Positions 20,549 to 40,296 of a stretch of DNA of 64,000 nt are shown here, in pieces; the first letter of the stretch is position 1; each line of letters opens with the position of its first letter. The position numbers and the translations under genes are program-made. The stretch lies in the NCBI RefSeq assembly GCF_057098645.1, contig NZ_CM169472.1; one strand, 5' to 3'. The notes under the pieces were generated by a model. The model saw only the letters and a list, made by a program, of their open reading frames with translations. It was not told the origin of the DNA and ran no database searches.

Positions 20549-20691
20549 TTCCTCGCCTTCCCCTTGAACGGGAGGGCATTTTTCTGAAATATCCTCTCTT
20601 TAACCCATAATAATATTTCCTTTGCTGCGATTTTTTCAATTTCCGATATATTCATAATTCATCAAGGTTGATATAAATATCATTGAAGATT

Positions 20692-22971
20692 ATGAATAGA
20701 ATTAATATATTGGTCATCTGTATGGTCGTATTTTTTATGACTGGCAATGCATGTGCCACAGAGTGGATCAGTAGCGAGGACCTTATCACCTCTGACTTTC
20801 ATCTTATGACGGCAGATGAGCGCAACGTGGTTAAAGCGGCAACCGACGATAGTATGGAAGCTGCTTATATGCTAAAAGATAATATCCGCTGGTATTATCA
20901 TAATGGTGACCTATCATTACCCGCTAACTTCAGCAATCAAAATAAACTGGTGGTGAACGGTAATTTAACGATTTCCGGCGATTATGATGATTATCTGTCA
21001 GGTAATGGTCATCTGATTGTATTAGGTAATGTTATTGTCGATAACTTTATTAATCATGATTTCGCGTATGTCAAAGGACAGATGACAGCGAAAGGTTTAG
21101 TTTATGCTGATTACAATGATCATAACTTTGAAGTGATGAAGGGAATTAGTGCGCGAGGCATTATTGTTTCCGATAAAGCAACGCAATTTGAAGTCATTAA
21201 AGCTGAATTTTATATCAATGAAGATGGAAGTGGTGAAGGATATAACTGGGATGAGAATATTCAAAAAGCCTATTCACTGGTGACTGCCGATCTTTATGAT
21301 CACACTGAAATCGAAACCGATAACATTTCCAATGCGTATCCTGACTATGATAGCGTCGCAGACAACATCGTTCAGGGTTTACCGCTTTTTCGAGATAAAG
21401 CCGCTCCTGAAATTAATGAGAAATTAAAATGGATTGAAACGGGGAAACTCGATAATTTCCCAGCGAATAAAATAAAGCATCAAGATCCACTGGTGGTACG
21501 TTTTTTGACTCATACAGAGAGTTTATCACCCGCCGTTATGCTGCAACTGTTACAGCACCCCGATGACCAGACGCGTGAATCGATGGCGCAGTCCTGGCCC
21601 GCTCAACAGATGCATTTGCTTACCGATGAATTAATTAAAGATGAGGCTGTTGCCAGAGGGCTGGTTAAAAACAGTAATATTTCCGCCGATGTGAATAAAA
21701 AATTAATGTCTGTACCCGTCGAGAGCGTACAGCTGGAGCAGGCCAGACAGGATAATCTTTCTCCAGATATTGTTGCGTCGTTAAGTCATAGCCCCTTTCT
21801 CAGTGTACGCAAGACATTACTCAGCCATTACGATTACGCCTGGCTGGTTCCGACTGCAGTGGCCGATGAGTTGATAAATAACGAAGACCCGGAGTTACGT
21901 GAAAGAATTACCGGAGCAGATTTAACCGCACAACAAGCAGTGATGTTGAGTAAAGATAAATCACTGAAAGTTCGTGAAGCATTAGCCCGGACGCTTACTG
22001 AATTAAAAATTACCCAACTGTCAGCAACCCTGCGTACAGAGGATATTGAACGTATCGCAGAACAAATGTATCTGGATAATAAAGAAAATAAAAATATCGT
22101 AAAAGCGTTATTGATAGCGTTGCCGGAGATGCGTCAACTGTCTCTGGCAAAAGAAGATGTGCACAATTTGCGCGAAGGTGCGCGTTATCTGACATCGAAG
22201 GACGTGATTAGTTATCTATTGACTCAGCATGATGTTCCCACCGTCTGGGATGAGCTGGCACGCGATAAATTATTGCCGCTGGAATATAAGAAACAGTTAT
22301 GGCAACGCACATTAAATTTAATGATGAGCAAACGGCAAGAAGATCAAGAGCAAGCCTACGAAGTACAGCTGGCGCTGATTGATAATGGTGTTGTTGACGA
22401 AGAGATGTTAAATAATGCCATTGATTTACTGGTTGATTTACCCGCTGAATACCGCTATCGAATGCGTAACCAATTATTTGATAATAAAGATTTACCTTCC
22501 GGAATTATCAACAAACTCGATCAACAGTATCGCTTCAACTCTGACTGGGCGCTGGCTGTTGTCAGTATGAAAAATAGCACCCGTAGGCAAAGTGAAAGAG
22601 GATTACACCGCTGGAACCATGAGGATAGCGATATTTTTGCGGAACTGGCGACGATAAAAGATAAATCAGATGATGAATGGTGGCGTGCATTGCTGCAAAG
22701 TCGCAATGATCATTTGCGCCAAACGGCATTACGCAACGCACATACCCCGGCGTCGTTGTTAACGACATTGACTGAGTCTCAGGATCGGTCGCTGGCTATT
22801 AATAATCCACAGCTGGCTGCCGATGTGAAAACGGTGTGGCTAAAAGAGGATCCATCATTGCTTTTATTTGTCGATCAACCCGATCTTTCGCAGTTACGGG
22901 ATTTAGTGAAAACCGGGGCAACGCGGAAAATTCGCAGTGAAGCGCGTCACCGGCTTGAGGAAAAACAATGA
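20692..22971 (+). CDS. Accessory secreted repeat protein (759 aa): Sec signal peptide, beta-rich N-domain, HEAT/LRV-like helical repeats
   Basis: ATG at 20692 gives MNRINILVICMVVFFMTGNACA|TEW (AxA cleavage site). N-terminal third has glycine-punctuated beta-strand-like repeats (LVVNGNLTISGDY, HLIVLGNVIVDNF, GLVYADY, GIIVSDK). C-terminal two-thirds has helical repeats (SPDIVASLSHSPFLSVRKTLL, EDPELRERITGADLTAQQAV). AT-rich codon usage by eye. Confidence 0.7.
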   Translation: MNRINILVICMVVFFMTGNACATEWISSEDLITSDFHLMTADERNVVKAATDDSMEAAYMLKDNIRWYYHNGDLSLPANFSNQNKLVVNGNLTISGDYDDYLSGNGHLIVLGNVIVDNFINHDFAYVKGQMTAKGLVYADYNDHNFEVMKGISARGIIVSDKATQFEVIKAEFYINEDGSGEGYNWDENIQKAYSLVTADLYDHTEIETDNISNAYPDYDSVADNIVQGLPLFRDKAAPEINEKLKWIETGKLDNFPANKIKHQDPLVVRFLTHTESLSPAVMLQLLQHPDDQTRESMAQSWPAQQMHLLTDELIKDEAVARGLVKNSNISADVNKKLMSVPVESVQLEQARQDNLSPDIVASLSHSPFLSVRKTLLSHYDYAWLVPTAVADELINNEDPELRERITGADLTAQQAVMLSKDKSLKVREALARTLTELKITQLSATLRTEDIERIAEQMYLDNKENKNIVKALLIALPEMRQLSLAKEDVHNLREGARYLTSKDVISYLLTQHDVPTVWDELARDKLLPLEYKKQLWQRTLNLMMSKRQEDQEQAYEVQLALIDNGVVDEEMLNNAIDLLVDLPAEYRYRMRNQLFDNKDLPSGIINKLDQQYRFNSDWALAVVSMKNSTRRQSERGLHRWNHEDSDIFAELATIKDKSDDEWWRALLQSRNDHLRQTALRNAHTPASLLTTLTESQDRSLAINNPQLAADVKTVWLKEDPSLLLFVDQPDLSQLRDLVKTGATRKIRSEARHRLEEKQ

Positions 22972-23423
22972 CACAACGCCCCTGGAGCAAGTTACAGCGG
23001 GAGAACTATGACTTACTGACGCCAACGATCAACCTGCACATTCACTGTACCCGTTATCCCATGCGCAGCCAAAATGGTGGAAGCACCGATTTACCGCGTT
23101 ATTGGATCACGTTGGATAAAAACGTGATCTGGGATTACCCGAAAGACTTTATTGCAGGTAACGGTGGAGTGCGTAATTTTCACGGTGAAACTTGCTGGTA
23201 TCCTTACCTGACGGATATTTGTCCAATTTCTGATTTATTGCGTGAATATATTGACACCCCAAAAGCGGAGCTGTTAACAAAACAATTTACCAGCGATAAA
23301 TGGGGGTTAGTGAATATTCTGCGTGCTGCTGACAGGCGAATAGGGATGAGACGATTCGATCAGTTACGGCGTAAAACGCATAATATTGCTGCGCTAAAAA
23401 TTATTGCCCGCCGTAGCGAATAA
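22968..23423 (+). CDS. Hypothetical protein (151 aa) translationally coupled to the upstream gene; may correspond to the K-12 ykiA locus
   Basis: ATGA start/stop overlap with the upstream ORF; basic, Trp/Tyr-rich; no family recognised. Confidence 0.55.
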   Translation: MTQRPWSKLQRENYDLLTPTINLHIHCTRYPMRSQNGGSTDLPRYWITLDKNVIWDYPKDFIAGNGGVRNFHGETCWYPYLTDICPISDLLREYIDTPKAELLTKQFTSDKWGLVNILRAADRRIGMRRFDQLRRKTHNIAALKIIARRSE

Positions 23424-23448: not shown

Positions 23449-23481
23449 GCCGGATAAGACGCGGCAGGCGTCGCATCCGGC
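23449..23481. repeat. REP-like palindromic element between islet A and rdgC
   Basis: gccggataagacgcggcaggcgtcgcatccggc, typical REP core motifs. Confidence 0.6.
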
Positions 23482-23500
23482 ATTAAAGGAAAATCAGCAA

Positions 23501-38807: not shown

Positions 38808-39866
38808 ATGACAATTTCAAATTCGAATTTATTAAAACCGTTTATTACTGGTTCTAAGTTGCTACCTTTTAAGGATGATGTCTTTTCTAAAACAGAAGAA
38901 CAATTTAAAAAAGCCCCCATGGCAAATCGCTTTTCATTTCCGGAAATGAAAACTTAGTAAACATTTCAGCGGAAAAAATCGATGAAATAAAAAATAGCAA
39001 AAATTTCTTTTCAAACATTGTAAATATAATAATTTTACTCATTAAGCATCCTGATAAAATTCTGCCTATTCTTCATGGTTGTCCTGCAGAGCCCATCGAA
39101 TTCATTAAGAATGCGAAACGAACGGGGCAATGGTCATATGAGATGACTGATAAGTACGGGCAGAGTATTGAAGTGTCCTATATTTTCACTGATACCATAG
39201 ATAATAAATCTGATGGAAAATTATGCTTAAAAATCTGTAACTCCTGCAACCAAAATGATTCTAGTACACATGAATATAAAATAGATCATCAACAGTTGAA
39301 AAATCACATAAAGCAACTTGAGGAGTGGGCTCTTCTTGAAAAGTTTTATGATAACAACGCTTATTATTCTAAACGTACAAAACAATTAGAGAAGAAAATT
39401 ACCGATGCGGGGTTTATAACAGGGAAGGTTAATGCCGAGAAGTTTAATGTAAAAGAGTTTAAAGACGATATAACCTCGATGCTTTGTGAACAGCCGCCCC
39501 TGCGTACACACCAGATTTCTTCATCCGGATACGTATCTGCAGATAAACTGCCCAAACTCTATGAGTTAAATTTGAAAGACGCGCAGAGAGATCTTAAAAC
39601 AACACCGGTTGACATCGATGGTGTCAGTTTAAAATTTAAAACTCGGGAAAGAATTGCAGAAGAAATTGCGAAAAAAACTGCGGGAAAAACTGCGGAAAAA
39701 AATTCGGAAATAATTGCGAAACAAAATGCGAATAGCATTGAGGAGAAGAATATTGAAAAAAAACAAGAAAGAAACAAATCCTGAAGATAATTTTGTCTTA
39801 AAATTCTCACAGGAAGAAATCAATGAGATGCTCCTGGATTACAGCGACGAAGAACAAAAAAATTAA
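38808..39866 (+). pseudogene. Accessory gene interrupted by two frameshifts at homopolymer tracts (would encode about 350 aa)
   Basis: ATG at 38808 with GGAG SD starts MTISNSNLLKPFITGSKLLPF... (frame 0). Reading continues without stop in frame 2 after the A6-G-C5 tract at 38907-38918, through the ORF-track 213-aa segment (39143-39784). It returns to frame 0 after the A8 tract at 39754-39761 and ends at 39866 (...FSQEEINEMLLDYSDEEQKN). Confidence 0.6.
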
Positions 39867-39898
39867 GACCTTTTTTCACTAGTGATCACATCTATTGT

Positions 39899-40276
39899 TT
39901 GTTCGATGCTTTTAGTCAGTGTTTGCATAATGTTGCTCGTGATGGCAGTCCACGGTATGCAGGTTTACTACAACAAATAGCATCCAAGTGTGCGATATTA
40001 CAAGATTTTGATCAACAATTGTTCTGGCGCACGTTTACAGGAGGGGGCCTCCATCGACATATCTCTGTGAAGAGCGAGCCAGAAAAGACAGATGTATGGC
40101 GATTCAGTACACAATTTGATTTTCCACATATAAATGAAAACGGAGAGTTGTCCAGAACGGTACTCATGTTCGAGGGGGTTGCTGAAAGCAACTTTAAAGA
40201 TATCGCCAATCATTCCAGCGAATGTTTTTCTTACCGTTGTTATGCCGCCCCGCTGGATGCGAATGCTAAAAAGTAA
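39899..40276 (+). CDS. Hypothetical protein (about 125 aa), start uncertain (TTG in ORF track)
   Basis: ORF with no ATG near its 5' end; AT-rich; no family recognised; may be a gene remnant. Confidence 0.3.
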   Translation: MFDAFSQCLHNVARDGSPRYAGLLQQIASKCAILQDFDQQLFWRTFTGGGLHRHISVKSEPEKTDVWRFSTQFDFPHINENGELSRTVLMFEGVAESNFKDIANHSSECFSYRCYAAPLDANAKK

Positions 40277-40296
40277 TGACGCCGGAGTTTGAAGTT

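Follow-up and report, generated by a model that had tools for sequence, protein, structure and literature searches.

An ATGA stop/start overlap in Escherichia coli as a probable junction of a decaying two-gene operon between ppnP and rdgC

Introduction

Does an overlap between the stop codon of one gene and the start codon of the next identify two products that are made in a fixed ratio and act together? This question is raised by a 64,000-nt stretch of Escherichia coli DNA (the window; closest named strain O145 RM9872, 99.9% identical), in which a 759-aa gene and a 151-aa gene meet at such an overlap. The original prediction, made from the letters of the window, had read it as a hallmark of stoichiometric co-expression, as seen for toxin/immunity, enzyme/chaperone or two-partner pairs.

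A genuine but commonplace overlap

Direct reading of the window placed ATGA at 22968-22971 on the + strand (context ...cttGAGGaaaaacaATGAcacaacgc...), where the ATG of the downstream gene (22968-22970) overlaps the TGA of the 759-aa gene (22969-22971). The 99.9% identical RefSeq genome NZ_CP028379 gives both CDSs identical boundaries, 4-nt overlap included, and the predicted overlap is thereby confirmed by both sequence and RefSeq boundaries; it was also already known, as both genes and their boundaries are annotated in RefSeq. The junction has the stop/start overlap expected of a same-strand coupled pair. According to the annotation of the near-identical genome (61 CDSs; 13 mismatches over the first 32 kb), 4 of the 37 same-strand neighbour pairs in the window overlap by exactly ATGA, namely tauB/tauC, tauC/tauD, sbcD/sbcC and the pair studied here. 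An ATGA overlap is not rarer than expected, and this one, real but textbook, annotated and occurring four times in the window, matters little as such.

The downstream gene has an unambiguous start, since the frame is closed by a TGA at 22956-22958, three codons 5' of the ATG, no candidate other than ATG 22968 occurs within 30 nt past that in-frame TGA, and an invariant W-S-K-L-Q motif begins at codon 6. Across about 80 homologous loci the start sits, with few exceptions, 2-4 codons ahead of WSKLQ. For the upstream ORF there are two start options, TTG at 20683 (762 aa) and ATG at 20692 (759 aa), the latter being the RefSeq choice.

The two proteins

The downstream gene (22968-23423, + strand) encodes a 151-aa SF0329-family protein, the full-length form of K-12 ykiD, which scores 73.8 bits against PF25753 (Pfam cut-off 27) and 87.5 bits against NF049912 (NCBIfam cut-off 60). 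A dN/dS of 0.08 indicates purifying selection, and a search at E <= 1e-3 gave 522 homologues, whose N-terminus is conserved; identity across phyla is 50-66%. The fold was predicted with a pLDDT of 84.8 and has no match among solved folds. No hydrophobic stretch was found at the N-terminus, and by its sequence the protein appears to be cytoplasmic. SF0329 stands out as unusually conserved for a protein of such scattered occurrence, and it has neither an assigned function nor a relative of solved structure.

The upstream gene (20692-22971, + strand), the full-length form of K-12 ykiA', is annotated as a 'DUF2773 domain-containing protein'. Pfam matched DUF2773 alone (PF10971; 137.5 bits, cut-off 25), over the last 81 residues (679-759). 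This gene is also under purifying selection (dN/dS 0.12), and because both proteins score above curated Pfam/NCBIfam cut-offs and both genes are under purifying selection, the two ORFs can be regarded as real genes. Residues 1-22 of the large protein are signal-peptide-like (...NACA|TEW), as are 24 of 36 N-termini in its family, and the protein is predicted to be exported; the signal-peptide and compartment calls use hydrophobicity and the A-x-A motif and nothing further. Its AF2 model has a pLDDT of 91.7, and fold matches indicate a beta-helix at residues ~68-176 followed by an LRV/HEAT alpha-solenoid at residues ~240-759, LRV/HEAT being seen in homologues as well. The C-terminal DUF2773 is itself a helical repeat. 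Fold searches returned beta-helix and solenoid matches and nothing else, and no toxin or catalytic domain was found with Pfam, NCBIfam, PADLOC and PHROGs, which gave just DUF2773 and weak HEAT. Neither protein matched any PADLOC defence-system model, and PHROGs gave one marginal match (E 0.0036).

The operon and its locus

The gene pair lies between ppnP and the convergent rdgC, with a G+C content of 35-48% in the large gene compared with about 50-58% in the flanks. A terminator-like hairpin with a T-run after ppnP (20555-20577, + strand), identified by pattern scan of the sequence, is predicted to separate the islet operon from ppnP. The same in silico scan detected neither a + strand terminator-like site between the genes of the pair nor a + strand promoter-like site 3' of 21300. 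A REP-like palindrome (GCCGGATAAGACGCGGCAGGCGTCGCATCCGGC, 23450-23482) is found where SF0329 and rdgC converge, between the two genes. With no internal terminator- or promoter-like site, the hairpin upstream and the palindrome downstream, the pair has the appearance of a single operon. The palindrome, which we take to be a REP element by its resemblance to E. coli REP sequences, is also kept in K-12 and other Escherichia.

The AT-rich region 5' of the large gene (20578-20691, + strand) is near-identical to the K-12 sequence 5' of ykiA, with a few mismatches in the first ~150 columns of an alignment of the ~150 nt upstream. The K-12 ykiA promoter has been mapped and is activated by BglJ-RcsB (PMC3950696), and by analogy a BglJ-RcsB-activated promoter would be present in this strain too. 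No secretion-system genes are annotated flanking the pair. Other accessory genes in the window, as annotated in the 99.9% identical genome, include an autotransporter gene (3617-6505, + strand), a frameshifted hypothetical gene (38808-40278, + strand) and the T3SS effector gene espY3, which encodes a pentapeptide-repeat protein (53244-54806, - strand).

Remnants of the pair in K-12 and other E. coli

Sequence alignment identifies the window pair as the intact form of K-12 ykiA'/ykiD, the K-12 genes being fossils left by deletions in a two-gene operon. In the K-12 large gene, one complex deletion of ~650 codons leaves ykiA', and in SF0329 a 372-bp deletion joins codons 1-10 in frame to the final 17 to give the 27-aa ykiD (K-12 locus L002, 1075-1158; MTQRPWSKLQ|RKTHNIAALKIIARRSE). 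The ends of the latter deletion are imperfect 10-bp direct repeats, AGTTAC(A/G)GCG, whose proximal copy AGTTACAGCG (22990-22999, + strand) and distal copy AGTTACGGCG (23362-23371, + strand) were located by alignment with K-12. YkiD has been detected in K-12 by means of a chromosomal SPA tag (PMC6001520), and this small protein is an in-frame remnant of the 151-aa protein. An independent SF0329 fossil, in frame and 21 codons long (MRLRRKTHNIAALKIIIRRSE), is present in Escherichia sp. E4930.

The pair is intact in 443 of 5,426 complete E. coli genomes (8%, O145 strains among them), counted as those that keep at least 80% of the islet. The locus has some value as context, with K-12 ykiA'/ykiD as fossils of an operon that still exists in the species. 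In the SW07164/B7A-type allele, the large gene and the Shine-Dalgarno (SD) sequence of SF0329 are deleted and SF0329 is frameshifted. In E. coli STO_Bone1B (L004, 748-1445), IS1 stands in place of the whole ppnP-rdgC islet.

The junction in related loci

The 30 nt ahead of the ATGA are identical in every E. coli allele retaining them, and the overlap is kept in all Escherichia locus variants examined that still have the junction. These variants differ in what surrounds it: Escherichia sp. E4930 has an intact large gene (759 aa, 74% identity, dN/dS 0.12) followed by the ATGA and only 21 codons of SF0329, E. albertii has GGAGG, ATGA and an intact 151-aa SF0329 (dN/dS 0.076, dS 0.91) preceded by zero open upstream codons, and Escherichia sp. 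MOD1-EC7003 has an intact SF0329 with a K-12-type upstream remnant.

Species-representative genomes, in which none of ~77 SF0329 loci outside Escherichia has a large-protein homologue, had suggested that the pairing is confined to Escherichia. This was overturned by the pair in three other enterobacterial genera, recovered from assemblies of public sequencing runs, in which the same families are adjacent at orthologous ppnP...rdgC loci (79-82% nucleotide identity in ppnP), separated by 2, 66 or 89 nt. The first of these loci (L101) encodes a large protein of subtype A (72% identity) whose TAA is followed by ac and the ATG of SF0329 (83%; SD GAGGG). The second (L102) has subtype A (49%) and then subtype B (30%), a 66-nt spacer and SF0329 (68%; SD AAGGA), and the third (L099) has subtype B (28%, no signal peptide), an 89-nt spacer and SF0329 (77%; SD AAGGAG). 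Outside Escherichia, adjacency is conserved and the overlap is not; conservation in orthologous loci, which had been proposed as a check on the overlap, holds in the Escherichia forms that still have the junction and fails in these three genera.

The two subtypes of the ~750-aa solenoid protein are old paralogues, ~29% identical, A with and B without a signal peptide. They stand in tandem 5' of SF0329 in L102 (323-2575 and 2665-4929), L099 has B only (532-2799), and E. coli and L101 retain only the A type.

Comparison of the junction codons, CTT GAG GAA AAA CAA TGA in E. coli, ...TTA AAA TGA in E4930, TTG GAG GAA AGA TAA TGA in E. albertii and CTG AGG GAC TAA ACA TGA in L101, shows a labile junction whose states differ just in the position of the first in-frame stop. 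The overlap looks like an Escherichia-specific compaction, the nearest other genus having TAA-ac-ATG at the homologous codons, and the out-of-frame TGA within the ATGA acts as a back-stop.

Translation initiation at SF0329

The SD core of SF0329, GAGG (22957-22960, + strand), lies 7 nt before the ATG, within the last codons of the upstream gene, and is identical in all E. coli variants and present as GGAGG in E. albertii. Predicted folding of the 121-nt junction is no stronger than that of shuffled sequence (z +0.43), and the mean unpaired probability from -15 to +5 of the SF0329 start, 0.69, is the highest of 29 annotated window starts tested. The gene has its own SD in weakly structured mRNA.

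In the K-12 upstream remnant, ATG is absent and the candidate start codons are TTG and GTG triplets, none of which follows an SD; low-level translation from one of them is possible. Taking together the SD, the open mRNA, the production of YkiD in K-12 and the E. albertii gene without an upstream ORF, we infer that de novo initiation is sufficient for SF0329 and that coupling would be possible, not required. Re-initiation could still be the source of most SF0329 translation. The sole allele that lacks both the SD and the upstream ORF, the SW07164/B7A type, is the one with a frameshifted SF0329.

The two families beyond this locus

In the loci examined, the families co-occur solely at the enterobacterial ppnP-rdgC locus and not outside Enterobacteriaceae, and all four solenoid homologues examined at other chromosomal positions are without SF0329. 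No recurrent partner family emerged among 150 ORFs that neighbour SF0329 at 50 loci. Most neighbours are housekeeping genes, with DUF4240 in 3 and SUKH_6 in 2 of the 150 ORFs, SUKH_6 being found in Bacteroides/Mediterranea loci. An SF0329 gene (75%) also lies beside an invasin-like gene at another chromosomal position.

In Leminorella (L096, 2238-6331), SF0329 lies among same-strand small orphan genes that include WGR+DUF4240, and in Paenibacillus elgii (L097, 2683-6252) among small same-strand orphan genes that include DUF2314 and a weak SUKH-3; DUF4177 is also counted in these gene runs. By analogy, both settings resemble orphan immunity-gene arrays, and the SUKH, DUF4240 and DUF2314 neighbours hint at immunity-island settings for SF0329 in a few loci. 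In Ruminococcus/Oscillospiraceae loci (L013, L029, L075, L082, ~5992), SF0329 overlaps an unrelated upstream VanZ-family membrane-protein gene by ATGA, which means that the overlap is not partner-specific. A mobile-element cause of the patchy spread of SF0329 was considered and is unsupported, with SF0329 in 0 of 50,697 phage records and in 2 plasmid records.

What the overlap means

We consider it likely that the islet between ppnP and rdgC is an old enterobacterial one in decay and holds a two-gene operon of which the ATGA is the junction, that coupling there is optional, and that the overlap is no evidence of a toxin/immunity or chaperone pair. Ribosomes would load de novo at the SF0329 AUG, and those that end at the overlapping UGA may re-initiate, making coupling an optional contribution.

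A stricter reading, in which obligatory coupling of translation holds the two proteins, working as partners or in a complex, at a fixed ratio, draws on the conservation of the overlap in every Escherichia form examined that still has the junction, on the solenoid gene kept beside SF0329 in three other genera, and on tauB/C, tauC/D and sbcD/C, which share the ATGA in this window and are true partners. A functional partnership, which may exist, would also predict adjacency kept, as here, in four genus-level lineages despite divergence of the solenoid to 28-72% identity. We nevertheless regard obligatory coupling as unlikely, since the other genera have spacers of 2, 66 or 89 nt, each with its own SD, SF0329 has a strong SD and an open initiation region, and K-12 makes YkiD without a credible upstream ORF. 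Each gene has moreover outlasted the other, SF0329 being intact and under purifying selection in E. albertii, where its partner is gone, and the large gene being intact in E4930, where SF0329 is down to 21 codons. The predicted compartments differ, exported for one and cytoplasmic for the other, and the families part company elsewhere (solenoid homologues in 0 of ~77 non-Escherichia SF0329 loci, and no SF0329 with 4 of 4 displaced solenoid homologues). Of the predicted hallmark of stoichiometric co-expression, an operon with possible coupling is retained, and the mark of a stoichiometric partner pair is not.

A toxin/immunity or effector/immunity pair, the exported large protein being the effector and SF0329 the immunity-type protein, is a still weaker candidate that we find highly improbable. 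The order of a large secreted protein before a small one resembles effector/immunity pairs, and SF0329 elsewhere sometimes lies amid orphan genes (SUKH_6, DUF4240, WGR+DUF4240, DUF2314, weak SUKH-3), but the large protein consists of a beta-helix and LRV/HEAT repeats with no toxin or catalytic domain, PADLOC models match neither protein, secretion-system genes do not flank the pair, and SF0329 neighbours are mostly housekeeping. Immunity proteins evolve fast; SF0329 is 50-66% identical across phyla. In E4930, the large gene survives without an intact SF0329, which a toxin gene should not tolerate, and co-occurrence of the families across genomes fails beyond the ppnP-rdgC locus. The suggested toxin/immunity or enzyme/chaperone pair is therefore not upheld, given the lack of a catalytic or toxin domain, the differing predicted compartments and the lack of a defence-model match. 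As to whether the second ORF or its start is an annotation artefact, the idea arises just from the very short annotated K-12 remnants and found no support; the 522 homologues with their conserved N-terminus, scores above curated cut-offs, the confidently predicted fold (pLDDT 84.8), a dN/dS of 0.08 and the K-12 product detected from the same start codon refute it, and we give it practically no weight.

Returning to the decaying operon, a broader reading is conceivable, if on balance rather doubtful, in which A-type exported solenoids, B-type solenoids without signal peptide and SF0329 form an undescribed enterobacterial module, probably under BglJ-RcsB control, with SF0329 as a cytoplasmic protein of new fold, spread across phyla, that acts with or on the solenoids. 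If that were true, the Escherichia ATGA would tune the solenoid/SF0329 ratio, and the still-translated 27-aa YkiD fossil of most E. coli might keep partial activity.

Comparison with known systems

The closest relatives of the pair are K-12 ykiA' (a DUF2773 pseudogene) and ykiD, which occupy the same ppnP-rdgC locus with the same promoter-proximal sequence as the window. The 30 nt before the ATGA and the ATGA itself are identical in both, and YkiD starts at that ATG; the difference lies in K-12, where the large gene is shorter by ~650 codons and SF0329 by 124. In terms of folds, the large protein matches LRV (PDB 1lrv)/HEAT solenoids and bactofilin-like beta-helices, but its combination of a signal peptide, a beta-helix and a ~500-residue solenoid in ~750 aa has no characterised counterpart among the matches.

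Polymorphic-toxin and effector-immunity pairs share the order seen here, in which the gene for a large, presumably exported product comes directly before that for a small cytoplasmic one, and SUKH and DUF4240 are occasional neighbours of SF0329 elsewhere. Unlike such pairs, the present one has no toxin domain and no secretion apparatus nearby, its small protein is extremely conserved, and its large gene is tolerated alone.

Translational coupling is described for the trp operon, and the nearest parallels to this junction are sbcD-sbcC and tauB-tauC-tauD, which have the same overlap on the same strand, lack a terminator at the junction, and carry an SD inside the end of the upstream gene, as here. 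We take the products of those genes to be subunits or steps of a single machine and the genes to co-occur widely, whereas the solenoid and SF0329 families co-occur at one enterobacterial locus only and each survives alone.
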